This document shows positions 4,100 through 58,950 of a stretch of 64,000 nucleotides of DNA, piece after piece. The first letter of the stretch is position 1. Each line of letters opens with the position of its first letter. This stretch comes from Minisyncoccota bacterium (GTDB taxonomy: Bacteria > Patescibacteriota > Minisyncoccia > Phycocordibacterales > UBA9973), in NCBI GenBank assembly GCA_041675085.1, contig JBAYUN010000003.1:28798-92797 (forward strand), in the 5' to 3' direction. Below the pieces are notes generated by a model. It worked only from the letters and a program-made list of their open reading frames with translations, did no database searches and was not told the origin of the DNA. The translations under genes were made by a program, and so were the position numbers.

Positions 4100-4558
4100 A
4101 TGTCACTAATAATATGTGGTACAAAAGATATAATTTCGATTCCTGTACCAAAAGAAATTTCTTGTCCTCTAACTGTATTACTAGAGTTGCAAAAAATATT
4201 TAATACTGAAGTACTGGGTATTACTTATGGAAAGAATAGTCCTTTTCTTCTCAAAGATCATAACTTATTTTGCATAACAACAAACAATAAAGGTTTATTT
4301 GATTTATGCGTAAAGAACGGAACCTTGTCTTTCTATGAACAAGAGCATAGCAGGCCTACGCATGTTGACCTTTCTGCTTTAGACGTATCTACAGTTCTTC
4401 TAAATTTCTTTAGTGCTTTAAAAAAAGTACTATATTCTGAAATAAGAATCGAATTACATAGCACAGACGCTACAAGAACTTTTTCTTATAGATTGTCGAT
4501 TAAAGAGGACGTATTGTTAAGAGAAAGTCTGGATTTTAAGAGATCTTCTGATTTCTGA
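4100..4558 (+). CDS. hypothetical protein (cargo between direct repeats)
   Basis: 152-aa ORF with no recognisable motifs. It is bracketed by ~40-nt direct repeats at 3946..3990 and 4601..4638. Confidence 0.3.
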   Translation: MSLIICGTKDIISIPVPKEISCPLTVLLELQKIFNTEVLGITYGKNSPFLLKDHNLFCITTNNKGLFDLCVKNGTLSFYEQEHSRPTHVDLSALDVSTVLLNFFSALKKVLYSEIRIELHSTDATRTFSYRLSIKEDVLLRESLDFKRSSDF

Positions 4559-4600
4559 AAGATTAATTTACAAAAGTACACTTTATAAAGTTAGAGTGTA

Positions 4601-4638
4601 TTTTTTTTATTTCCTAAATTTCTTTAACTGCTTCGATT
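4601..4638. repeat. direct repeat copy 2 (authentic dnaE 3' end)
   Basis: tttttttatttcctaaatttctttaactgcttcgatt overlaps the last codons and stop of dnaE (minus strand). Confidence 0.5.
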
Positions 4639-7600
4639 AGTATGGTCTTAGTGTCTTGTCTTATTGAGACTTTGCCAGTGAAGGCTATGCATTTTTCTGT
4701 TTGGAGTATGGCTTCTGAAGTTTTATAAATACTTGGGAACGCTACGACTTCTATACTTCCAGTAAAATCAGCCACTCTCAAGAACGCCATCTTTTCATTT
4801 TTCTTAGTTATGATTTCTTTTGTATTTTCTATAATTCCAGCTAGAGTGACAACGTTGCCCTCTTTACCTTTTTCTAAAATTTTAGCGATATTGATTTCTC
4901 TTTTTTCTAATTTATCTCTAACTCTATCGAGTGGATGACCTGAGATATAGAGTCCGAGTAATTCTTTTTCCCAAAGTAATTTCTCGTTCTTATTCGCTAG
5001 TGGAGCATCAGTGAGTTTGAATTCTGGAGCTTTTATCTCAGATAATCCTCCAAACAGGGAAATCTGATTTGCGTTTTGTTTGCTACCTTCTTTGTTGTAG
5101 AGGAGCATGTCTTCTAGGTTTGCTAGCAATACTCCACGATCAGCCCACTGGTCCATGCTTCCAGATTTGATTAGAGCTTCCATGGATTTTTTATTTAAAT
5201 TTTTATGTTTAATTCTATCTAGAAAGTCGCCAATAGATTTGAATTTGCCATTATTTTTTCTCTCAGATATTATAGCTTCTCCGATATCGGCTCCAAAGTT
5301 TTTAATAGTATAGAGTCCAAAACGTATCGTCTCTTGGTTAACACAAGTAAAACCTTTAAAGCTTTCATTAATATTTGGAGGCAAGACTTTGATTTTCATT
5401 TTCTCACACTCACTAACTATTTCAGAAATTTTTTCTACGTCTCCGGATTCAGCTGTGAGTACAGCGGACATGTATTCTACCGGGTAATTCGCCTTCATAT
5501 AAGCGGTCTGATATGCGACGCGTCCATATGATGCTGAGTGAGCTTTGTTGAAACCGTAGGCTGCGAAAGGTTCTATCTGACTCCAGAGTTCTTGTGCTTT
5601 TTTCAAAGGCCATTTAGAGTGCTCAACACAACCAGTGATAAAATGTTCTTTTTGTTTTTCCATTTCTTCTGGGATTTTCTTACCCACAGCTTTACGGAAT
5701 TTGTCAGCTTCTCCCCAAGAGTATCCTGCAATATCAATAGCTATCATCAAAAGGTCGTCTTGATATACAAGCACTCCATAAGTTTGCTTTAGTATTGGTT
5801 CAAGCATTGGATCCATGTATTTCACTAGACTTGGGTTGTGTTTGCGTTCGATATAAAGAGGGATGAATTGTATCGGACCGGGACGGTATAGAGCGACCAT
5901 AGCGTTGATATCGTGAATAGAAGTAGGTTTCAATTGTTTTAAATATTGAGTCATACCTCCACCGTTGAGTTGGAATAATCCCATAGTTTCTCCACGCGCG
6001 AGAAGCTCGAAAGTTTTTTTGTCTGCTACGTCAACGTTCTCGATATCTACTTCAATGTTGTGAATTTTCTTTACTATTTTCACAGCGTCAGCAAGGATAG
6101 AGAGGTTACGAATACCCAAGAAGTCGAATTTAGGAAGACCAACGTCTTCTATCTGATACATGTCGTATTGAGTTATGACATCGCCACCTTTCGGATCGTA
6201 TTGTACTGGAGTGAATTCGTACAAGGGCTTCGGAGCGATGACGATACCGGCCGCATGCACCGATACGTGACGGACACAACCTTCCATCTTTTTCGCCAGG
6301 TCGATAATCTCACGAGTAATTTCTTCTTTTTCATATGCTTCTTTGAGTTCGGGAACTAATTTAAAAGCATGCTTGATAGTCATCGGCATACCTTGAGAAC
6401 CCATAGGTATCATACTCGAAATGCGGTCACCAACAGAGTATTCATGACCCAAGGCGCGAGCTACGTCGCGCACCGAACCTTTAGCCATCATGGTTCCAAA
6501 AGTTCCTATTTGAGCTACACGATCTTTGCCGTATTTTTGTTTGGTATATTCTATCATCTCGGCGCGTCTGTTGTCGGCAAAGTCCATATCGATATCGGGC
6601 AGCGACGGACGTTCGGGATTTAGGAATCTTTCGAAAGGTAATTTGTAAGTTAACGGGTCGACGTTGGTAATACCGAGGAGGTATGTAGTCAGAGAGCCGG
6701 CGACTGATCCTCTGATGTTTGTTAGGATACTATTCTCACGAGCATAACGAAGCAAATCTCCCACAACTAGGAAATAAGTCGAATAACCTTTTTGTTTAAT
6801 GATACCGAGTTCGTATTCGAGTCTATCGACGTAGTCTTTAGTTTGTTCTAGCTTACGGAAAGGGAATCCAGCATAAGCGAGTTCTTTTAATACTATATTT
6901 GGGTCACGGTCACCTTCGATTTTGAATTCTGGGAAATACGGCACCCCGAGTTCTATCTCGTAGTCTTCACACATATCGGCTACTATTTTTGTATTACTGA
7001 CCGCCTCCGGAGCGTCTTTAAAGTATTGAAAAGCAGTCTTGGTATCGATAAAAGAAAAGTCATCATCTGAGAATTCAAATTTACCTTTTTCTTTTCCGTC
7101 GGAACCGGTATTAACTTGGAGCAAAGTGTGGTGAGCTTTATGATCGTCACGACAAGGATAATGAGAGTCTTGAGTTGCGACTACTCGCAATCCAAAACGA
7201 GTAGCGAGCGCCAATAGCTTTTCTCTGAGCTCTGCGTCACGTTCGATATGAGGGTGAGATTGAATCTCTAGAAAATAATTTTCCTTACCAAAAATATCAA
7301 TATGAGTATTTATTATCTCTTCTACTTTTTCATGATTCTCAGCCAAGATAGCGCGTGAGAGTTTGCCTCCCATACAACCCGAAAGACAGATAATACCTTC
7401 AGCGTGTTTTTTAACTAATTCTTCATCGACGCGAGGTTTATAATAATATCCGTCGAGGTTAGCCGTCGTCACTATCTGCATTAAATTTTTGTAACCTTTT
7501 AAGTTTTTGGCTAGCAGTATTAGGTGATATCTTTTGTTATCTATACCAGGAGATTTGTCGGTAAGTTTTCTCTCGGCGACGTAGACTTCACAACCGATGA

Positions 7601-7799
7601 TAGGCTTGATACCTTCTTTTTTACATTCTTTATAAAACTCAATAGCGCCGTACATATTGCCGTGATCGGTCAGAGCTACAGCAGGCATTTTGAATTTCTT
7701 GGCTAAAGCTACAATATCCTCCACCTTAGAAAGTCCGTCGAGTAGGGAATAATGAGAGTGAGTATGCAAATGTATGAATTCTTTTGTAACTTTTGTCAT
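4614..7799 (-). CDS. dnaE: DNA polymerase III alpha subunit
   Basis: 1061 aa. The N-terminal PHP domain reads [47 protein letters not shown] polymerase core follows and a C-terminal OB-fold. Confidence 0.9.
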
Positions 7800-7859
7800 T
7801 TTTTCTATAATAGCATATTTAGAGATTATTTTTATTGTGTTTAGTTTTTTGTGGAAATT

Positions 7860-7880
7860 GGCGGAGGTAACGCCTCCGCC
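7860..7880. repeat. GC-rich REP-like hairpin
   Basis: GGCGGAGG-taacg-CCTCCGCC in an AT-rich intergenic region just downstream of the RAYT-like gene. A near-identical hairpin sits at 8564..8589. Confidence 0.5.
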
Positions 7881-7902
7881 AATTTGGTTCTTATGTTCTT
7901 AG

Positions 7903-47327: not shown

Positions 47328-47371
47328 TTTTTATTTTTGTGTTAAAGTAAAAGTACAATCAAATATTGTAT

Positions 47372-47535
47372 ATCAAGAGTGAGGTTTCTTTTGAATTTCA
47401 AAAGAAAAGAGAATTGGCTCAGACCTCCAGCAACCTGTCTTTTAAGGAAAGGTGCTAAATCCAACCTAAAGCCCTAAGGCTGAAGGAAAGATATGTCTCG
47501 CGTCTAGTCCATGCAAGAAAATTCTTTCCTTCATT
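47372..47535 (+). promoter_or_regulatory. SAM-I (S-box) riboswitch with terminator expression platform
   Basis: AUCAAGAGUGAGG...AGAGAAUUGGCUCAGACCUCCAGCAACC...AAGGUGCUAAAUCCAACC...GAAAGAUAUG matches S-box conserved blocks (AUCAAGAG.GG.GGAGGGA.uGGCCC..UGA..CCCGGCAACC / AAGGUGCUAAAUCC). The terminator AAGGAAAGA...TCTTTCCTT plus U-run follows. It lies directly upstream of metK. Confidence 0.8.
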
Positions 47536-47560
47536 ATTATAATGTAGGAATTTTTTATTT

Positions 47561-48496
47561 ATGATTAAAACAGCTGAGTTTGTGAGTCCACGTCATCCAG
47601 ACAAGATTTGTGATTTTATTGCAGATTCTATTCTGGACGCTTATTTAGAGGGCGACGTTGATAGTCGTGTGGCTATTGAAGTTATGGGTGGTCATAACCT
47701 TATCACTATCAACGGTGAAGTCACTTCTAAGACAGAAATTAATATAGAAAATATTGTTAAGAATATAGTTGGTGAGGGTTATAAGGTTCTATCCAATATC
47801 GCTTTGCAGAGTCGGGAAATAGCGAGCGGTGTAGATACGGGCGGGGCAGGAGATCAAGGTATTATGAAAGGATATGCGACTCACGAGACTGAGAGTCTAC
47901 TACCTTTAGAATACGAACTTGCGAGAGATTTGTGTCAAAAGATTTATAAAGTTTATCCTTATGACGGCAAGACTCAAGTTACTGTCGAAGATGGGCGGGT
48001 GAAAGTCGTCGTAGCGAGTTTTCAAAATTCTAAGAATAGTAAACTTCTAGAATTAGTAAAAAGTATAATCGACTCCGAAGAATATCTAATCAATCCAGCT
48101 GGAGAATGGGTCTCGGGTGGCTTTGATTCTGATACAGGTCTTTCTGGACGCAAACTCGTCGTGGATAATTACGGCCCCGAAGTCGCTATCGGAGGTGGGT
48201 CTTTCTCGGGCAAGGATTATACCAAAGTAGATAGAAGCGGAGCGTATATGGCCCGCAAGATAGCCGTAGATTTATTGCGTAAATATGAGGCGAAAGAAGT
48301 CGTCACCAAGCTTGCTTATGCTATAGGTAAAAGCGAACCTGTCATGGCTATAGCTATAGTCGACGGTAGAGAAGAAGAAATAGCTGATTATGATCTAAGT
48401 CCAAAAGGTATCAGAGAATATCTCAAACTAAAAGACGTAAAGTTCGCTGAGACTTGTACTTGGGGACATTTTGGGCGAGGTTTTAGTTGGAAATAA
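47561..48496 (+). CDS. metK: S-adenosylmethionine synthetase (compact 311-aa form)
   Basis: SPRHPDKICDFIADSILDA (GHPDKIxDQISD), GGAGDQGIMKGYATHET (GAGDQGxMFGYA), DTGLSGRKLVVDNYGPEVAIGGGSFSGKDYTKVDRSGAYMAR and the C-terminal WGHFGR. Confidence 0.85.
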   Translation: MIKTAEFVSPRHPDKICDFIADSILDAYLEGDVDSRVAIEVMGGHNLITINGEVTSKTEINIENIVKNIVGEGYKVLSNIALQSREIASGVDTGGAGDQGIMKGYATHETESLLPLEYELARDLCQKIYKVYPYDGKTQVTVEDGRVKVVVASFQNSKNSKLLELVKSIIDSEEYLINPAGEWVSGGFDSDTGLSGRKLVVDNYGPEVAIGGGSFSGKDYTKVDRSGAYMARKIAVDLLRKYEAKEVVTKLAYAIGKSEPVMAIAIVDGREEEIADYDLSPKGIREYLKLKDVKFAETCTWGHFGRGFSWK

Positions 48497-50925: not shown

Positions 50926-50961
50926 AAATAGTTTTCTCTCTGTAAAAAAGAGAATAAGTCC

Positions 50962-50990
50962 CATACCGTTGGGACTTTTTTATTTTTATT
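50962..50990 (+). terminator. rho-independent terminator
   Basis: AGTCCCA-taccgt-TGGGACT plus a T-run. Confidence 0.5.
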
Positions 50991-51419: not shown

Positions 51420-52376
51420 ATGACTAGAAGCGAAATTATAGAAAAACTCAAAACTGATTTTGACCTACATGATATCTATATTCAGCATGTTTTAAGACAT
51501 GCAAAAAATAATTTTAATTATGAAAATCTAAAAAATATTATCGACTCAAAACCGAAACCTTTTGTAAAGTGGGTCGGAGGCAAGAGGCAACTCCTAAAGC
51601 AATTTAAAAAAATGAACTTGTATCCTCCTTTTGGATTTGATGCAAATAAGAATACTTACTTTGAACCGTTTGTCGGAGGTGGAGCTGTATTCTTTGACCT
51701 GCTACCCAAAAAAGCTTTCTTGTCGGATTTGAATTCTGATTTAGTGATTACTTATAACGTAATTAAAAATAATATCGATGCTTTGATAAAATCTTTAAAA
51801 AAGCATGAATACGAAAAAGATTATTTCTTGAAAGTTAGAGCTAAAAATCCGAAAGAACTTTCTGATTTAGAAATAGCTTCAAGATTTATTTTCTTAAACC
51901 GTACTTGTTTCAACGGCATGTATAGAGTAAATAGTAGTGGGCAGTTCAACGTACCTTTCGGGAAATATACCAATCCTTTGATTTGTGACGAAGATAATTT
52001 GAGAAAAGTTTCTAAAGCGTTAGAGAACGTAGAAATCAAACACCAAGACTATAAAGCGGTCTTAAAGAAAGCAAAGAAAGGGGACTTTATATACTTTGAT
52101 CCACCATATTATCCAATAAGTAAAACTGCATCTTTCACTACATATACTACAGAAGCATTCTTAGATAAAGAGCAAATAGAACTAAGAGATACATTTTTAG
52201 AACTTCATAAAAGAGGTTGTTTTGTTATGCTTTCAAATTCAGATGCACCTTTTATTAATAAAATTTATACAGGATTTAAAGGAGTGAAAATAAACAAAGT
52301 AGAAGCTGGTCGCGCAATCAATTCAGATTCTTCCAAGAGAGGAAAAATCACGGAAGTATTAATAACTAATTATTAA
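51420..52376 (+). CDS. Dam-family N6-adenine DNA methyltransferase (MethyltransfD12)
   Basis: KPFVKWVGGKRQLL (Dam motif), FEPFVGGGAVFF (FxGxG) and YFDPPY (DPPY motif IV). Confidence 0.85.
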   Translation: MTRSEIIEKLKTDFDLHDIYIQHVLRHAKNNFNYENLKNIIDSKPKPFVKWVGGKRQLLKQFKKMNLYPPFGFDANKNTYFEPFVGGGAVFFDLLPKKAFLSDLNSDLVITYNVIKNNIDALIKSLKKHEYEKDYFLKVRAKNPKELSDLEIASRFIFLNRTCFNGMYRVNSSGQFNVPFGKYTNPLICDEDNLRKVSKALENVEIKHQDYKAVLKKAKKGDFIYFDPPYYPISKTASFTTYTTEAFLDKEQIELRDTFLELHKRGCFVMLSNSDAPFINKIYTGFKGVKINKVEAGRAINSDSSKRGKITEVLITNY

Positions 52377-52381
52377 GATTT

Positions 52382-53641
52382 ATGGCTAATAATGGAAAAA
52401 TAGAATTTTCTTGTTTATGTTTCGATAAAGATAATCAATGTGTTTTTGGGGATGATCCTTCTCGTTTGGCGATGTCTTTAAAAAGTAACATATTGTTGTT
52501 TCCTAAAAATACAACTATTACTGATCACGACAATACTAAAACTTTAATAAAAGATAATGATAATGGCTTAGTTTTGAGTGTAATAAAATTATCTGGTTCT
52601 AATTTTCTAGATTATACAGCGGTTTTTTATCTTAAATGTGAAATAATTGGAAATGAAAAAAATATCTCTTATTTAGATAAATTTCGATTGAACATTGTTA
52701 ATTATTTAGTTGAACAAAAACTAGGTAAAATTTATGTAACCACAGATGAACTTTCATCAATGCTTTTGAATGAGCTTTATATCAAAATGAATAAAGTTGA
52801 AAATTTATTAAGGTCTTATATAACAAAACATTTTTCCATGACAGAAGGTGTTAGTTATTGGTTTAACAACGTCCTTGACAATGAAGTTAAAAATAAAACA
52901 GGGAAAAGAAAAGGTAATGAAGATGTGTTTTCAACAATAGTCGAGGAAAATGATAAAAAGGGTTTTGTTGTAGATACTAGGATGTATTTAATTGATTTCG
53001 AAGACTTGGGGAATATTATTTATGCTAACTCTTTTGGCAATTTAAAAATTGAAGATTTGGTTACAAGAATTGAAAATTCTGAAGATCTGGATGATTTAAA
53101 ATTAGCAGTTAAAAATAATATAGAAAGATATTTTCAAAGCTTTAAAGATGTAAGATTTCAGGAGAAATGGGATTTTTTAAAAAATATAAGACATAAAATT
53201 GCTCATAATGGACTTATTTCAATTGAACAAAAAACAAAAGCTGATCTGTATTTAAATGAATTGATTAATTTTATGACTGAAAAAGATACAGAAACAATTG
53301 GCAAAATATCAGATGTTGATATTTTTATAGATATAGAAAAGCGTGAGTATTCTTATATTGACTTTCATCATAAAGAAATAACAAAAAATGAATTAATACT
53401 TGAGCTTTCAAATTATCAAAAATGGTCAAAAAGCATAGGGAGAGATTTTCTAGGATTAAAAAACTTTCTTTTTAATCGTTTAGGAGGTATGGATTTCCAT
53501 ATTGGAAAAGCATGGGATAAGCTTGAAGAATTAGAACAAGACGGATATATTCAAATTTATGAATGGAAAGATCCTAAAGGTATATATACAGACCAAAAAG
53601 CAATAAAAATCTTGAAAGATTTACCAATTTATTCTGTTTAA
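52382..53641 (+). CDS. hypothetical protein with HEPN-like Rx4HxxG motif (Abi/Swt1-like?)
   Basis: 419 aa. LKNIRHKIAHNG matches the Rx4-6H HEPN RNase motif seen in Abi_2/Swt1-like families. The rest of the protein is unrecognised. It sits between the two methyltransferases. Confidence 0.3.
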   Translation: MANNGKIEFSCLCFDKDNQCVFGDDPSRLAMSLKSNILLFPKNTTITDHDNTKTLIKDNDNGLVLSVIKLSGSNFLDYTAVFYLKCEIIGNEKNISYLDKFRLNIVNYLVEQKLGKIYVTTDELSSMLLNELYIKMNKVENLLRSYITKHFSMTEGVSYWFNNVLDNEVKNKTGKRKGNEDVFSTIVEENDKKGFVVDTRMYLIDFEDLGNIIYANSFGNLKIEDLVTRIENSEDLDDLKLAVKNNIERYFQSFKDVRFQEKWDFLKNIRHKIAHNGLISIEQKTKADLYLNELINFMTEKDTETIGKISDVDIFIDIEKREYSYIDFHHKEITKNELILELSNYQKWSKSIGRDFLGLKNFLFNRLGGMDFHIGKAWDKLEELEQDGYIQIYEWKDPKGIYTDQKAIKILKDLPIYSV

Positions 53642-53645
53642 AAAT

Positions 53646-54404
53646 ATGGCAAACAATAATTCTTGGAAAAAAATATTTGATGATTATAAAATTTTGAAAC
53701 ACGACTTTTCAAAAGCACCTTTTTATTTGTCTGCAAAAGATATAAAAAAATCCGTTCAAGATTTTAAAGGTACAACCGAAAAAGAAGTTCGTATATTGTG
53801 CAAAATGGATACAAGAGAAAGTGTTCCAGAAGTAATGAGGGAAAGGGGCTTGATTTTGTTACCAGTTAAAAACGGTTATTATGTAATTTTGAAGGGAGAA
53901 GGATATATTGATATACCTGACATAAAAAATGATGCTGAAATATACAATACTAAATTAGATTTTGATTTGGATACTGTAAAAATTGGTAACTCTGAAATGC
54001 AACATTTAGATTTTGCTTATGCTTCAAGTTTGATTAGAACATTTATGGAAGATCCGACACTTGTTTTAACTATTCGTGGTAGAAAATATACACCTGAATT
54101 TAGTTTTAAAATTGGTAAGCATCTTATCGAAACAGAAAGTGTGCAAACTGAAGTTGATGCGGGTTATGAAGGTAAAAATCAAATAGTTTTAATTGAAGCA
54201 AAGAATTCAAAAACAAAAAATACAATCATTAGGCAATTATATTATCCTTATAGACAATGGTCAGAATATACAAAGAAAAAAGTTGTTTTATTGTTTTTTG
54301 AGAAAAGAATTGATGAATATTTAATTTGGCAATATGAATTTTCCAACAAAGATAATTATGACTCAATAAAATTAGTTAAATCAAAAAAATATAAAATAGT
54401 TTAA
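53646..54404 (+). CDS. candidate PD-(D/E)xK restriction endonuclease
   Basis: VDAGYEGKNQIVLIEAKNS supplies D...(x12)...E-A-K in a hydrophobic beta-strand context. The stop overlaps the start of the downstream MTase (TAATG). Confidence 0.35.
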   Translation: MANNNSWKKIFDDYKILKHDFSKAPFYLSAKDIKKSVQDFKGTTEKEVRILCKMDTRESVPEVMRERGLILLPVKNGYYVILKGEGYIDIPDIKNDAEIYNTKLDFDLDTVKIGNSEMQHLDFAYASSLIRTFMEDPTLVLTIRGRKYTPEFSFKIGKHLIETESVQTEVDAGYEGKNQIVLIEAKNSKTKNTIIRQLYYPYRQWSEYTKKKVVLLFFEKRIDEYLIWQYEFSNKDNYDSIKLVKSKKYKIV

Positions 54405-55156
54405 TGTCACAAAAAGAATTAAAACTTCATCCCGAGAATTTTGAAATGGAGTGCACAAGCGTTTGGGCTTTTCCTAGGCGTGGGAATTGGGCTACTCATA
54501 CTTCGGATTGGAGAGGGAATTGGTCGCCTGAAGTTGTGCGTAATATAATTCTACGATATTCAAAAGAAGGGGAGCATTTGCTTGACTGCATGATAGGAGG
54601 CGGTACGACAGCGATAGAAGCCAAAATTCTAAATAGACATATAACTTGCCTAGATATCAACGAAGAAGCCCTAGAGAGAACTAAACGAGTTTTAAACTTT
54701 GAAAGTGATAACAAAGCCAAGCAGAGAGTCTTGAAATGTGATGCTCGGAACATGACTTGTATTAAAGATGGTGAGATAGATTTAGTCTTAACTCATCCAC
54801 CTTATGCAGATATTATTAAATATAGCGAAGGTCAGATTTTAGAAGACTTATCTAATATTCATGATATTGATAAATTTTGTGATGAAATAGAACAAGTAGC
54901 TAGAGAGCTTTTTAGAGTTTTAAAGAAAGGAAAATATTGTGCTATTTTGATAGGAGATACAAGGAGAAATAAAATGTATCAACCTTTGGCTTTTAAGGTT
55001 ATGGAAAAGTTTTTGAAAGCAGGTTTTGTTTTAAAAGAAGATATAATCAAAAGACAATTTAATTGCAAAGCGACAGGGTTCTGGGTAAACAAATCCAAAG
55101 AAGCAAATTTCTTATTAATAATGCATGAACATTTATTTATTTTTCAGAAAGTTTAG
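54404..55156 (+). CDS. N6_N4-type DNA methyltransferase (N6-adenine or N4-cytosine)
   Basis: LLDCMIGGGTTAIEA (SAM-binding) and DLVLTHPPYAD ((S/D)PPY/F catalytic motif). About 250 aa, DpnA/M.MboIC-like in size. Confidence 0.75.
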   Translation: MSQKELKLHPENFEMECTSVWAFPRRGNWATHTSDWRGNWSPEVVRNIILRYSKEGEHLLDCMIGGGTTAIEAKILNRHITCLDINEEALERTKRVLNFESDNKAKQRVLKCDARNMTCIKDGEIDLVLTHPPYADIIKYSEGQILEDLSNIHDIDKFCDEIEQVARELFRVLKKGKYCAILIGDTRRNKMYQPLAFKVMEKFLKAGFVLKEDIIKRQFNCKATGFWVNKSKEANFLLIMHEHLFIFQKV

Positions 55157-55214
55157 TATAATAAATTCTGATAAATATATGTTATAATAAAAAAGTGCTA
55201 CTATTAAATAGTTT

Positions 55215-55350
55215 AATCAAGAGTGGTGGTAGAGAATTGGCTCAGTAACCCCACAGCAACCTACAAATGTAAGGTGCTAAATCCAACCAGGTGCGAAAGC
55301 ATCAGGAAAGATATGTCTCGCGTCTAGTCCACGAGAGAAAAATCTTTCCT
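55215..55350 (+). promoter_or_regulatory. SAM-I (S-box) riboswitch, second copy
   Basis: AAUCAAGAGUGGUGGUAGAGAAUUGGCUCAGUAACCCCACAGCAACC...UAAGGUGCUAAAUCCAACCAGGUGCGAAAGCAUCAGGAAAGAUAUG. Terminator GAAAGA..TCTTTCC plus a T-run. Confidence 0.8.
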
Positions 55351-55376
55351 CTTATTAGAGGAATTTTTTATTTATT

Positions 55377-56312
55377 ATGAAGAAAACAGCAGAATTTGTT
55401 AGTCCAATGCATCCAGATAAAATCTGTGATCATATCGCAGATACTATACTCGATGCATATTTAGAAGGAGATAAAAATAGTCGTTGCGCTATAGAGGTTA
55501 TGGGTGGTCATAATCTGATTACTATCAATGGAGAAATCACCTCTAAAACAGAAGTTAACATTGAAGAGATTGTTAAAAATATCGTTGGTGAGAATTATAA
55601 AGTTTTATCAAATATTGCTTTGCAGAGTACGGAGATAGCGGCGGGTGTAGATACTGGCGGTGCGGGTGATCAAGGAATCATGAAAGGTTATGCGACTCGG
55701 GAGACCGATAATTTTATGCCATTAGAATATGAACTTGCGAGAAATCTTTGTCAGAAAATATTTGAGATATATCCTTATGACGGTAAGACTCAGGTCACGA
55801 CAGAAGATGGGCAGGTCAAAGTAGTTGTGGTGAGTTTTCAGAATTCTAAAAATATTGAACTTTTAGAATTAGTAAAAAGTATTATTCCTGCTGAAGAATA
55901 TCTGATCAATCCAGCTGGAGAATGGGTGCAGGGAGGATTTGATTCAGATACTGGTCTTTCAGGAAGAAAATTAATAGTAGATAACTATGGACCAGAAGTT
56001 GCTATTGGTGGTGGGTCTTTCTCAGGCAAGGATTATACTAAGGTAGATAGAAGTGGAGCATATATGGCTCGCAAGGTTGCCGTAGATCTGCTTAAAAAAT
56101 ATAAAGCTAAAGAGGTACATATAAAACTTGCATATGCTATAGGAAAAGCAGAACCAGTAATGGCTGTGGCTAATATTGATGGCATTGAAATAGAAATCAC
56201 AGGATATGATTTAACACCTAAAGGAATATTTGATTATTTAAAATTAAGTAAAATAAAATTTTCTAAAACTTCTAATTGGGGTCATTTTGGAAGAGGTTTT
56301 TCTTGGAATTAA
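55377..56312 (+). CDS. metK: S-adenosylmethionine synthetase, second paralog (311 aa)
   Basis: SPMHPDKICDHIADTILDA, GGAGDQGIMKGYATRET, DTGLSGRKLIVDNYGPEVAIGGGSFSGKDYTKVDRSGAYMAR. About 75-80% identical to the first copy by eye. Confidence 0.85.
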   Translation: MKKTAEFVSPMHPDKICDHIADTILDAYLEGDKNSRCAIEVMGGHNLITINGEITSKTEVNIEEIVKNIVGENYKVLSNIALQSTEIAAGVDTGGAGDQGIMKGYATRETDNFMPLEYELARNLCQKIFEIYPYDGKTQVTTEDGQVKVVVVSFQNSKNIELLELVKSIIPAEEYLINPAGEWVQGGFDSDTGLSGRKLIVDNYGPEVAIGGGSFSGKDYTKVDRSGAYMARKVAVDLLKKYKAKEVHIKLAYAIGKAEPVMAVANIDGIEIEITGYDLTPKGIFDYLKLSKIKFSKTSNWGHFGRGFSWN

Positions 56313-56356: not shown

Positions 56357-56827
56357 TTGAGTTATACAAGCCTTAACATTAAATGTTATAATAATTCTAT
56401 GCAAATAAGATGCCGAGGGATAATTTTAGATAAGGAGGGGAAGATGCTTGCCGTTCGACATGGGGCGGATTTTGATTATTATGCTTTGCCTGGAGGGAAA
56501 TTGGATGACGGGGAGAATCCTTTGGTTTGTATCAAGCGGGAAATATTTGAAGAATTTGGAGTAGAAATACAAGTAGAGAATACTAAACTTCTTTATGTTC
56601 ATAATTGGAAGAACAAAGAAGACGGAGTTGAAAATTTGGAATTCATATTTTTGATAAAAGATAATGGAGAATTCATGAATCTAGAAGAAAAAAAGGGAAG
56701 TCATGCTTTTGAAATATTTGAAATCAAATGGATAGATCGGAATACAGAAATAAATCTCTTGCCAAAGCAGGTCCTAATAGATTATAAAAAAGGCTTCTCG
56801 GATGAGGTAGTATTCTTGTCAGTCTAG
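56357..56827 (+). CDS. NUDIX hydrolase
   Basis: Nudix box GGKLDDGENPLVCIKREIFEEFGVEI (Gx5Ex7REuxEExGu). The true start may be MQIRCRG at 56399. Confidence 0.65.
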   Translation: MSYTSLNIKCYNNSMQIRCRGIILDKEGKMLAVRHGADFDYYALPGGKLDDGENPLVCIKREIFEEFGVEIQVENTKLLYVHNWKNKEDGVENLEFIFLIKDNGEFMNLEEKKGSHAFEIFEIKWIDRNTEINLLPKQVLIDYKKGFSDEVVFLSV

Positions 56828-56841
56828 AATTATAAATACAT

Positions 56842-57303
56842 ATGAACTACTGGCTAATTAAAAGTGAAATGGAGTGTTATGGGATTGATGACTTGAAGAA
56901 GGATAAGAAGACTTTTTGGTCTGGGGTGCGGAATTACCAAGCGAGGAATTTTATGATGAAGGGGATGGAGATTGGGGACGGGGTACTCTTTTACCATTCC
57001 AACGGTACGAAAGAAAATCCGGCGGGGGTTTACGGACTAGCAAAAGTGGCGAGTAAGGCGCGTGCGGACGAGACGCAGTTTGATAAAAAGGATGAACATT
57101 ATGATAAGAAAGCTACTAAGGAAAGGCCGATATGGTACTCTGTTGATATGGCATTTGTAAAAAAGTTTGAAGAGCCGGTATCTCTTTCAGAAATTAAAAT
57201 TGATCCAGCATTCGCCGGCATGCCACTCCTCGCCCGAGGGCAACGCCTTTCTGTGATGCCCGTTTCCAAAAAGCATTTTGAGCATATCGTTACTCGAGCT
57301 TGA
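56842..57303 (+). CDS. EVE (PUA-like) domain protein
   Basis: MNYWLIKSEMECYGIDDL...WSGVRNYQARNFMMKGMEIGDGVLFYHSN...GVYGLAKVAS is a near-consensus EVE domain. Confidence 0.8.
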   Translation: MNYWLIKSEMECYGIDDLKKDKKTFWSGVRNYQARNFMMKGMEIGDGVLFYHSNGTKENPAGVYGLAKVASKARADETQFDKKDEHYDKKATKERPIWYSVDMAFVKKFEEPVSLSEIKIDPAFAGMPLLARGQRLSVMPVSKKHFEHIVTRA

Positions 57304-57331
57304 GCAAAAAAAGTAGAATAATATTACAAAA

Positions 57332-57365
57332 AATAAAGACCTTCATTTTTTTTTGAAGGTCTTTT
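57332..57365. terminator. bidirectional terminator
   Basis: AAAGACCTTCA-ttttttttt-TGAAGGTCTTT between convergent genes. Confidence 0.55.
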
Positions 57366-57379
57366 GATGTAAGAAGAAA

Positions 57380-57601
57380 TTATTTCTTCTTCTTGTTTGA
57401 TTTTTTGATTGAGGTGTATTTCACCTCCATGCCTTTTGGGCGTTTGGATTTTTTTACTCCGCAACTTGCGCTGCGGTTTTTAGCTATACCAGAGTTTGAG
57501 TACTTCTTACTCCACTCATAGCTCCCTGGTTGGGGAGTGCTACAGCTTGAGAAAAATAAACAACCAAAACCCAATACGATATAAAGAACAAACTTTTTCA
57601 T
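57380..57601 (-). CDS. small lipoprotein
   Basis: Signal peptide with a lipobox-like FFSSC. 73 aa, basic C-terminus. Confidence 0.35.
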   Translation of the reverse strand: MKKFVLYIVLGFGCLFFSSCSTPQPGSYEWSKKYSNSGIAKNRSASCGVKKSKRPKGMEVKYTSIKKSNKKKK

Positions 57602-57732
57602 GAATAAAGAATTTAGTGTGTGAAGAAATCTGTGTATATTATATCATAGATATATCTAAAAGTCAAGTATACGTGATGGTTCAATACCTTGGAATCACCT
57701 CAAATCATTAAATATATTAGGATTTAGGCCTA

Positions 57733-57806
57733 ATATCGTTAAAATCTGTTAAATATTATTGTTTTTAACGATATTGCTTGACTTTATCAGCAATATTTAA
57801 TATAAT
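57733..57806 (+). promoter_or_regulatory. consensus sigma70 promoter (TTGACT-17-TATAAT) overlapped by two palindromic operator-like sites
   Basis: TTGACT 57778..57783, 17-nt spacer, TATAAT 57801..57806. IR1 is ATATTGCT(57771..57778)/AGCAATAT(57789..57796), spanning the -35 and spacer. IR2 is ATATCGTTAAAA(57733..57744)/TTTTAACGATAT(57763..57774). The ATG lies 8 nt after the -10, so the mRNA is leaderless or nearly so. Confidence 0.55.
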
Positions 57807-57813
57807 CTTATAT

Positions 57814-58695
57814 ATGGCAAATACATTCAAGGCATATAAACAAATACAAGAACTACGGGAAAGGTATTATAAAGCCCTTGTTGGCAAAGAATCTCTTGTA
57901 AAAATGATTTCTGAAGCTGAAATTTCAGAGCAAGTTTATAACTCAAATGCTATTGAGAATAGTACTTTGTCTTTAGATGAAACAGATAAAATCCTACTTC
58001 AAATAGACCTTGATAGATATATATCCGAGAGAGAGATTTTTGAAGCTAAAAACCTAGCTCGAGTCGTAAGTTATATTGAAACTAAATCTAAAGCTAGTGA
58101 ATTAGATTTTGCAATTATTCTATCTTTGCATAAAATGTTAATCTCAAATATTAGAGATGAAATAGCAGGAAGATTTAGAAAAGAAGGTGAATGGGTTCGT
58201 GTGGGCGATCATATAGCTCCAGATCCTTTAGAAGTTGAAAACTTATTGCAAAAAGTTTTAACTGAATATAATGGAAATTCTAAAGAATCCATTGTAAAAA
58301 AAATTGCAAGATTTCACTTGGGTTTTGAATACGTGCATCCTTTTTGTGATGGCAATGGGCGTATCGGTAGAGTGTTAAATAATTACCTTTTGATTCGTGG
58401 AGGTTACGTACCTATAAATATTAAATTTATTGATAGAGCTATGTATTATGATGCTTTCCGTGAATTTCAAAAAAAAGGTACTACAAAAATAATGGAGATA
58501 ATAGTGCTTAAAGCTTTAACTAATAGTTATCATAAAAGATTAGCTTATTTAGAAAATAAATTAATTATTAATTTATCTGATTATGCTAAAAGAAATAAAA
58601 TTTCGCATGCAAATCTAATTAATAAAGCAAAAAGGCAAACTATCGAAGCTTTTATGGAGAGAGGTATTTGGAAAATTGGTGTAGATAAAAATTAA
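57814..58695 (+). CDS. Fic-domain protein (AMPylase family)
   Basis: HPFCDGNGRIGR is the canonical Fic motif HPFx(D/E)GNGRxxR. The start is reassigned to MANTFKAYK downstream of the promoter. Confidence 0.8.
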   Translation: MANTFKAYKQIQELRERYYKALVGKESLVKMISEAEISEQVYNSNAIENSTLSLDETDKILLQIDLDRYISEREIFEAKNLARVVSYIETKSKASELDFAIILSLHKMLISNIRDEIAGRFRKEGEWVRVGDHIAPDPLEVENLLQKVLTEYNGNSKESIVKKIARFHLGFEYVHPFCDGNGRIGRVLNNYLLIRGGYVPINIKFIDRAMYYDAFREFQKKGTTKIMEIIVLKALTNSYHKRLAYLENKLIINLSDYAKRNKISHANLINKAKRQTIEAFMERGIWKIGVDKN

Positions 58696-58950
58696 ATGCA
58701 AAGCTTTAGAGAAAAAGTTTTAGATATTGTGAAAAATATCCCTCGGGGGAAAGTTATGACTTATAAGGAAGTCGCGCTAAAGGCGGGGAGTGGGCGCGCT
58801 TCGCGGGCTGTAGGCTCGATACTAAAAATGAATTATGATAAAAATATACCTTGTCATAGAGTGATCAGAAGTGACGGGCAAACGGGCGAATACAATAGAG
58901 GCAGAGAAAATAAAATCAAATTACTTAAACAAGAAGGTGCTATTTTGTAG
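58696..58950 (+). CDS. MGMT/Ogt-family DNA-binding domain protein (methylated-DNA--protein-cysteine methyltransferase C-terminal domain only)
   Basis: TYKEVALKAGSGRASRAVGSILKMN...IPCHRVIRSDGQTGEY carries the PCHRV active-site motif. Only 84 aa, so no N-terminal domain. The ATG immediately follows the Fic stop. Confidence 0.7.
   Translation: MQSFREKVLDIVKNIPRGKVMTYKEVALKAGSGRASRAVGSILKMNYDKNIPCHRVIRSDGQTGEYNRGRENKIKLLKQEGAIL

Follow-up and report, generated by a model that had tools for sequence, protein, structure and literature searches.

What do the four consecutive genes at positions 51420–55156 of a 64,000-nucleotide (nt) stretch of contig JBAYUN010000003.1 from a Minisyncoccota bacterium (assembly GCA_041675085.1; the window, hereafter) encode? 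A reading made from the letters alone had proposed a restriction-modification (R-M) block of the DpnII/MboI kind, composed of two methylases and a nuclease, with an inserted gene carrying a HEPN motif. Our analyses favor, with moderate confidence, a revised form of this proposal, in which a GATC-directed R-M cassette and an autonomous inserted HEPN RNase would constitute a stacked defense within one operon.

Operon Organization

Four consecutive plus-strand open reading frames (ORFs) fill positions 51420–55156 with gaps of 5, 4, and −1 nt. The first encodes a Dam/DpnM-type N6-adenine DNA methyltransferase of 318 amino acids (aa; 51420..52376), the second an Abi2/Swt1-like HEPN protein of 419 aa, the inserted gene and a predicted RNase effector (52382..53641), the third a candidate Type II restriction endonuclease of 252 aa, here termed R252 (53646..54404), and the fourth a second DNA methyltransferase of 250 aa, M250 (54404..55156; PF01555). 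The sequence-only reading had these four ORFs, their boundaries, and their strand right; every motif that it quoted is found, and the TAATG stop/start overlap by which it coupled the R252 gene translationally to the second methylase gene is in the sequence. A terminator scan places no terminator-like site within 51420–55156. The nearest upstream terminator (50956–50977) lies two genes before the operon, and the nearest downstream one (55346–55363) is the expression platform of an S-adenosylmethionine (SAM) riboswitch. In this AT-rich DNA a sigma-70 promoter scan gave the real sequence no advantage over shuffled sequence, and we did not use it. The four ORFs are real genes and not chance ORFs, because each has many homologs and because the ratio of nonsynonymous to synonymous substitution (dN/dS) is 0.07–0.12 between the window and L008, the one further locus that shares this arrangement, in the three comparable genes (those of Dam, the 419-aa protein, and R252).

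Two Methylases of Different Families

The first gene had been assigned to the Dam family on the basis of its KWVGGKR and DPPY motifs (DPPY at 52098–52109, aa 227–230). Both are present, and the assignment agrees with the Pfam and NCBIfam models (PF02086, E 4.1e-65; TIGR00571, E 1.8e-87). Among solved structures the best match is DpnM from the pneumococcal DpnII system (PDB 2dpm, E 2.6e-71), which is ~50% identical to the window protein; E. coli Dam matches at 3e-36. A loop of the window Dam, NRTCFNGMYRVN, corresponds in the alignment to the loop NRYGYNGLCRYN of E. coli Dam; in the latter enzyme this loop holds the GATC-contacting residues N120 and R124, and both the asparagine and the arginine are kept. 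Nearly all Dam homologs that adjoin R252 in other genomes retain the loop pattern of NRTCFNGMYRVN. As judged by sequence comparison, the first methylase is a true DpnM ortholog.

The fourth gene had been read as an N6_N4 methylase of ~250 aa with an HPPY motif, equivalent to DpnA or M.MboIC. The first part of this reading stands: M250 matches PF01555 (1.4e-22, in two permuted stretches) and the PADLOC model MTase_II PDLC03376 (E 1.1e-86), and HPPY is present as motif IV (aa 131–134; 54794–54805). The equivalence to the beta-class enzymes DpnA and M.MboIC does not, given that motif I of M250 (DCMIGGGT; 54584–54607) precedes motif IV, an order that is permuted relative to TTHA0409 (2zie, aligned), M.MboII, and DpnA. 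All 27 homologs compared have HPPY as motif IV, instead of the usual D/N/SPPY. The composition of a two-methylase Type II R-M operon is thus borne out, and the methylases and nuclease follow each other as in the MboI operon, whose order is M-R-M (mboA-mboB-mboC).

A Nuclease Family Distinct from DpnII/MboI

R252, whose sequence is identical to NCBI entry WC011_02660, is composed of two domains of unknown function, DUF6996 (PF22515; 53658–53888; E 6.9e-21) and DUF6997 (PF22518; 53895–54395; E 2e-52), and matches the PADLOC model REase_II PDLC03513 (E 6.7e-31). The proposed PD-(D/E)xK signature is present as D171-x12-E184-A-K186 (predicted catalytic residues, 54156–54203), and these three residues are invariant in the family down to 56% identity, as are E117, D122, and E169. 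In an AlphaFold2 model with a predicted local distance difference test score (pLDDT) of 87.4, the fold agrees with the signature: the top Foldseek matches in the PDB are PD-(D/E)xK nucleases, the best being the Cas4-family protein ACE1 (E 1.3e-3, probability 0.99), and further matches include SSO0001, RecU, Hjc, McrC, and HincII. Sequence and profile searches of R252 against all PDB chains returned nothing useful. We conclude that R252 is a predicted PD-(D/E)xK nuclease, as judged from its modeled fold.

The suggestion that this nuclease belongs to the DpnII/MboI family has to be abandoned. None of 33 diverse members of the R252 family matches PF04556 (DpnII), even at E <= 10, and an hhalign comparison of R252 with the genuine DpnII-family protein of locus L067 returns a probability of 0.1%. 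The family is large, comprising 3860 clusters at 90% identity, and is distributed among candidate phyla radiation (CPR) bacteria, Bacteroidota, spirochaetes, cyanobacteria, and archaea. A literature search on DUF6996, DUF6997, and PF22518 found no papers. Plasmid-borne relatives (~30% identity) also adjoin genes annotated as "DNA adenine methylase." Homologs P0020–P0139 share 80–88% identity across Nomurabacteria, Woesebacteria, Moranbacteria, Gracilibacteria, Wolfebacteria, and other CPR lineages, and identity this high across lineages suggests that the cassette has been transferred horizontally often and recently.

The Cassette across Genomes

We fetched 80 genomic loci encoding R252 relatives and classified their neighbors by tblastn, Pfam, and home-built hidden Markov models (HMMs). 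A methylase adjoins R252 in all 80 (79 by HMM classification and L061 by tblastn), usually at a spacing of 0–15 nt, and three alternative methylase families serve as the partner. The most frequent arrangement is a beta-class methylase followed by R252 (26 loci); the Dam–R252–M250 order that underlies the window operon occurs in 20 loci, nearly all of them in CPR genomes. M250-like–R252 pairs are found in five loci, Dam–R252–beta-class methylase, ordered as in MboI, in another five, and Dam–beta-class methylase–R252, the dpnMAB order, in one. The beta-class methylases beside R252 form one family with pairwise identities of at least 42%. In seven loci Dam is the sole methylase next to R252, and in seven others a DpnII endonuclease (PF04556, E 1e-96 to 1e-106) stands between Dam and R252, with a beta-class methylase after R252. 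The latter GATC-type cassettes, each with two unrelated nuclease genes (L066, L067, L072, L073, L079, L081, and L085, at ~4200–7900 of each), come from Bacteroidota, Treponema, and Lachnospiraceae.

Because Dam is the sole methylase in seven loci, is itself orthologous to DpnM, and shares cassettes with DpnII enzymes, R252 is likely a Type II endonuclease that acts at GATC and belongs to a family other than DpnII/MboI. We also considered that R252 might not be a GATC restriction enzyme at all and might recognize another site or have another role, for example as a nickase that senses methylation state or as an accessory nuclease beside a separate restriction enzyme. R252 resembles DpnII in neither sequence nor profile and matches no Pfam or NCBIfam restriction-enzyme model, most database records label its homologs hypothetical (a Microcystis homolog is named "type II restriction enzyme" in RefSeq), and in the seven loci with a bona fide DpnII endonuclease a second enzyme for the same site looks redundant. 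However, a methylase from one of the three families adjoins R252 in every locus, most cassettes contain no other nuclease candidate (including the seven in which Dam is the only methylase), and the catalytic triad of R252 is invariant even in loci that also encode DpnII. Two restriction enzymes for one site have a precedent in SsuDAT1I. We regard this alternative as clearly unlikely and retain GATC-directed restriction as the probable activity of R252.

The 419-aa gene is a real insertion, because ~20 otherwise collinear cassettes do not contain it. Among the 20 Dam–R252–M250 cassettes the gaps are mostly 0–10 nt, with a wider Dam|R252 gap in three and a wider R252|M250 gap in three; the Dam stop codon lies 3–10 nt before the R252 start in these canonical cassettes, with the exception of L014 and L017, which have genes in the gap, and L082, in which the start is unclear. 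Only the window and L008 carry the 419-aa gene between Dam and R252 among the loci examined. The L008 copy (P0001) is 77% identical to the window protein, and between the two loci dN/dS is 0.088 for the 419-aa gene (synonymous divergence, dS, ~1.6), 0.115 for Dam, and 0.074 for R252. The value of 0.088 indicates purifying selection on the 419-aa gene and, at a dS of ~1.6, suggests that the embedded arrangement is old and maintained.

Other genomes carry other genes at the same junction. Between Dam and R252 we find, in addition to the DpnII endonuclease of seven loci, a DpnA-like methylase (L052), a 326-aa coiled-coil/membrane protein (L017:5007–6000), two small ORFs (L014:1249–1870), and a combination of DpnII with a membrane protein and a DndB-like protein (L066:3101–5995). 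The R252|M250 junction contains small HTH-like (helix–turn–helix) ORFs in two loci (L015:2582–3174; L016:1242–1853) and a 219-aa ORF in a third (L020:6757–7423). Because these ORFs are unrelated to each other and occur in different genomes, the distribution suggests that the cassette junctions are variable slots at which insertion recurs. The start of the 419-aa ORF, ATGGCTAATAAT (MANN; 52382–52393), is nearly equal to the start of R252, ATGGCAAACAAT (MANN; 53646–53657). This shared start may be a trace left by the recombination event that brought the gene in; a shared start of this type is absent in L008.

Two further R252 loci have unusual neighbors. In Candidatus Nealsonbacteria CP179888.1 (L032:4542–5996), a 484-aa protein encoded directly upstream of the R252 homolog is a fusion in which a beta-class N6_N4 DNA methylase is joined to LexA DNA-binding and S24 peptidase domains; this fusion could be an SOS-cleavable or self-regulating methylase. 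In L048 a gene encoding a circularly permuted YpsA (SLOG) protein immediately follows the R252 homolog (6772–7275), and several Dam-like fragments are located upstream.

The Inserted HEPN Protein

The 419-aa protein is composed of three domains. The central domain (aa 123–307; 52748..53302, plus strand) contains an Ex3R motif at 52799–52813 and an R-H-x3-H motif at 53189–53206; the NIRHKIAHNG string quoted in the sequence-only reading corresponds to aa 268–277. The HEPN active site has been defined as Rx4–6H with a polar residue after the arginine, located where helix 3 ends and often accompanied by an upstream Ex3[KR] (Anantharaman et al. 2013, PMC3710099). Both motifs of the 419-aa protein match this definition, as does the position of the R-H-x3-H motif at a helix end: in the AlphaFold2 model R270 ends the helix of residues 259–274 and H275 opens the loop ahead of the helix of residues 281–307. 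A long helical stretch separates the two motifs in the protein. An alignment of 18 sequences, with identities down to 26%, reveals invariant residues (E140, N141, R144, R270, H271, K272, H275, and N276).

Profile comparisons with relatives of the window protein place the family near known HEPN groups. PF18731 (HEPN_Swt1) matches 13 of the 18 family members, with a best E of 1.3e-5, and the match of P0019 covers profile positions 6–114 of 115. PF07751 (Abi_2) matches four relatives, and the score of P0013, 29.7 bits, exceeds the cut-off of 25.6 bits. The matches to both models extend from the Ex3R helix as far as the Rx4H motif. The PADLOC profile PDC-M34B matches 16 of the 18 members (best E 3.4e-12). 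On this motif and profile evidence, we identify the 419-aa protein as a putative divergent HEPN protein of the Abi2/Swt1 branch.

The N-terminal domain (aa 1–122; 52382..52747, plus strand) matches no family. It is predicted to form an alpha/beta domain of six strands and two helices; pLDDT is mostly 83–92 when averaged by block and is lower in block 1 (69) and block 8 (76). Foldseek detects a weak START/KA1-like resemblance (E > 0.02). The earlier description of an inserted HEPN-type gene with a novel N-terminus therefore holds on each point, given the comparison of cassettes, the family profiles, and the unmatched first 122 residues. The C-terminal domain (aa 335–410; 53384..53611, plus strand) is winged-helix-like, with three helices and a beta hairpin in the AlphaFold2 model, and has local Foldseek matches to DnaD-N, RTP, RepA-like proteins, and HTH regulators (probability 0.8–1.0, E > 0.05). 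Sequence and profile searches of the protein against all PDB chains returned nothing useful, and Foldseek searches of the full model against the PDB and BFVD returned sub-threshold matches to the end domains only, with no HEPN match.

The winged-helix-like domain and the location of the gene inside the operon would also fit a noncatalytic regulator or DNA-binding accessory of the R-M system, comparable to a controller protein, in which the HEPN motif is incidental. We consider such a role very improbable, given that none of the 18 sequences, with identities down to 26%, departs from the Ex3R and RHx3H residues, that most homologs are encoded far from any R-M system, and that canonical cassettes function without this gene. 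We therefore continue to treat the protein as a predicted HEPN RNase.

A profile search of 1.84 billion representatives identified 1011 relatives at E <= 1e-3, counted as representatives at 50% identity, of which 129 have E <= 1e-30. Most have ~400 aa, and the match runs along their entire length. The 419-aa protein thus belongs to a sizeable, unnamed family of three-domain proteins whose domain architecture is undescribed.

Genomic Contexts of the HEPN Family

The contexts of the relatives of the 419-aa protein, which amount to ~28 distinct loci, are diverse, and most copies are solitary. Some are found beside other defense genes, encoding a PifA-type KAP NTPase (twice), an Nhi/AbiO-like helicase, an AbiEii-like ATPase, GmrSD-HNH, and a DUF3427-PLD helicase. 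Others neighbor mobile elements, namely serine recombinases, IS66, a group II intron, and a Rep protein. Still others end housekeeping operons, following Mur ligase genes (twice), ribosomal-protein genes, and the ATP synthase gamma gene. The two copies that adjoin a Mur ligase gene (L001:6001–7215; L117:241–1374) are located at the end of the dcw (cell-division) cluster in two lineages, and this position may be a recurrent integration site of the family. We did not identify a conserved partner gene across the contexts examined. No sign of a phage- or plasmid-borne copy is apparent, because tblastn searches of plasmids, phages, and IMG/VR with the 419-aa protein gave no match.

R-M genes adjoin members of this family in only 3 of the ~28 distinct loci. 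One relative, P0004 (56% identity; L113–115), is part of a different Type II system. There the gene of a beta-class methylase comes with that of an MvaI-like endonuclease (PF15515; 2oa9, E 2.3e-17), and an ATGA stop/start overlap joins the endonuclease gene to the downstream HEPN gene. The HEPN gene has thus become part of two Type II operons that are unrelated, and in both it lies directly beside the endonuclease gene.

This placement raises the question of whether the HEPN protein guards the restriction enzyme. PrrC, as described in PMC1484252 and PMC3710099, is a HEPN-type RNase encoded in the EcoprrI type Ic R-M locus that is released as a second line of defense when restriction fails. The window HEPN gene is likewise embedded among R-M genes. 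In an analogous arrangement, the 419-aa protein would bind the adjacent endonuclease and be held latent by it, and its RNase would be freed when a phage anti-restriction factor disables that endonuclease. The family's proximity to endonuclease genes in two unrelated Type II systems is consistent with such a guard, as are the 4 nt that separate the window HEPN gene from R252, the ATGA overlap with the MvaI-like endonuclease, and the persistence of the embedded arrangement through a dS of ~1.6 under purifying selection; the same logic is proposed for R-M-linked HEPN genes in PMC3710099 and for PrrC in PMC1484252. However, most members of the family stand alone, and the 419-aa protein differs from PrrC and RloC in that it matches no ATPase family and has, in place of an N-terminal ABC-type NTPase, a small alpha/beta domain made up of its first 122 aa. 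In addition, its host system is Type II, unlike the Type I host of PrrC, and given that the two associated restriction enzymes are unrelated, a specific interface would need to evolve twice. We keep a guard of the PrrC kind as a tentative possibility. A broader version of this idea is that an unnamed HEPN family in CPR genomes docks repeatedly on Type II endonuclease genes as a minimal, ATPase-free guard similar to PrrC, and that the Dam|nuclease junction is a general capture slot; we find this version doubtful.

Comparison with Known Systems

The DpnII system is composed of dpnMAB (PMC3812788). The window operon resembles DpnII and MboI in that a Dam/DpnM-type methylase comes first and two methylases and one nuclease are encoded in a tight operon; its relatives in other genomes add a beta-class methylase at the DpnA/MboC position or a real DpnII endonuclease. 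It differs in its nuclease, a DUF6996/DUF6997 protein with no PF04556 signal, in its second methylase, which is permuted and has HPPY (a beta-class enzyme occupies that position only in related cassettes), and in its extra HEPN gene. Because it has neither an endonuclease of the defining family nor a second methylase of the beta class, the window system is outside the DpnII/MboI family, and its resemblance to these systems is functional and architectural and not one of family membership.

HEPN genes are known from R-M operons in "at least 16 distinct clades," and Abi2 is listed as "embedded in R-M operons" (Anantharaman et al. 2013, PMC3710099, Table 1). The family of the 419-aa protein resembles the Abi2 (AbiD/AbiF)/Swt1-like clade in its Abi_2 and HEPN_Swt1 matches, and its R-M context fits that table; it differs in its length of ~400 aa and its three domains, and no Pfam model spans the full length. 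The likeness to PDC-M34 (subunit B), with 16 of 18 members matching, is limited to ~aa 127–216, and a would-be subunit A partner is found in none of the contexts. A literature search on PDC-M34 found no papers.

A Proposed Stacked Defense

Based on these comparisons, we hypothesize that the operon provides two layers of defense. The first layer would be a mobile Type II cassette composed of the DpnM-type Dam, the DUF6996/DUF6997 PD-(D/E)xK endonuclease, and the permuted HPPY methylase, in which R252 most likely cuts unmethylated GATC in incoming DNA and either methylase alone is most likely enough to protect the host. The second layer would be a single-gene, autonomous defense module inserted precisely at the Dam|nuclease junction. 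Its central Abi2/Swt1-type HEPN domain would act as a metal-independent RNase, presumably held silent by the N-terminal and winged-helix-like C-terminal domains until infection. Co-transcription would then allow DNA restriction to act first and abortive infection at the RNA level to act second. We infer the GATC specificity, the RNase activity and its targets, the trigger, and any cross-talk with the restriction enzyme.

Several observations weigh against this reading. The target base of M250, N6-methyladenine (m6A) or N4-methylcytosine (m4C), cannot be read from the HPPY motif alone. GATC occurs 137 times in the window compared with 178 expected (z −3.7), a mild depletion that is not diagnostic because the palindromes CTAG, GGCC, and TATA are depleted as well. 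The co-occurrence of R252 with a DpnII endonuclease means that the role of R252 could differ from plain GATC restriction. Finally, the HEPN profile matches come from relatives of the window protein; the window protein itself has no match in Pfam, NCBIfam, or the PDB and thus no match to a Pfam HEPN model, and the HEPN_Swt1 scores are all below the gathering score (best 25.8 bits against a cut-off of 27.5).

The embedding of HEPN genes in R-M operons was described in 2013 and has PrrC as its paradigm, so the surprise of the present case is limited. New are the specific HEPN family, the Type II and CPR setting, the behavior of the cassette junctions as apparent variable slots, and the association of DUF6996/DUF6997 with methylases as their partner nuclease. 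The last of these gives a very large uncharacterized family a probable function, that of a restriction endonuclease partnering GATC-type methylases, as a second family beside DpnII/MboI. The operon junctions seem to accept alternative accessory genes, among them a DpnII endonuclease, a coiled-coil/membrane protein, and the HEPN gene. A compact, four-gene, ATPase-free Type II system lends itself to testing the long-standing idea that R-M-linked HEPN RNases back up failed restriction, and it would provide a concrete case of layered immunity in small CPR genomes.

Neighborhood of the Operon

Two metK paralogs (47367–48496 and 55211–56312, leaders included) flank a 6.9-kb segment that holds the operon. 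They share 83% protein identity and 77% DNA identity across 1097 nt, including the leader. The downstream copy (55377–56312) is separated from the operon by a SAM riboswitch (SAM-I, 55211–55317; 55.2 bits), and the upstream copy is also preceded by a SAM-I riboswitch, with 36.7 bits, which is below the gathering score. The duplication of a SAM synthetase gene beside SAM-dependent methylases is curious. We rejected metK as part of the system, given that it is near none of the 80 related cassettes.

The EVE and Nudix genes that had been noted after the operon are both downstream of it, as claimed; the SAM riboswitch and metK that intervene had gone unmentioned. The Nudix gene (56357–56827) lies beyond metK and is followed by the EVE-domain gene (56842–57303), a Fic-domain gene that matches the PADLOC profiles SoFic and PDC-S04 (57778–58695), and, 3′ of it, an 84-aa ORF (58696–58950). 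This region (56357–58950) resembles a small defense island.

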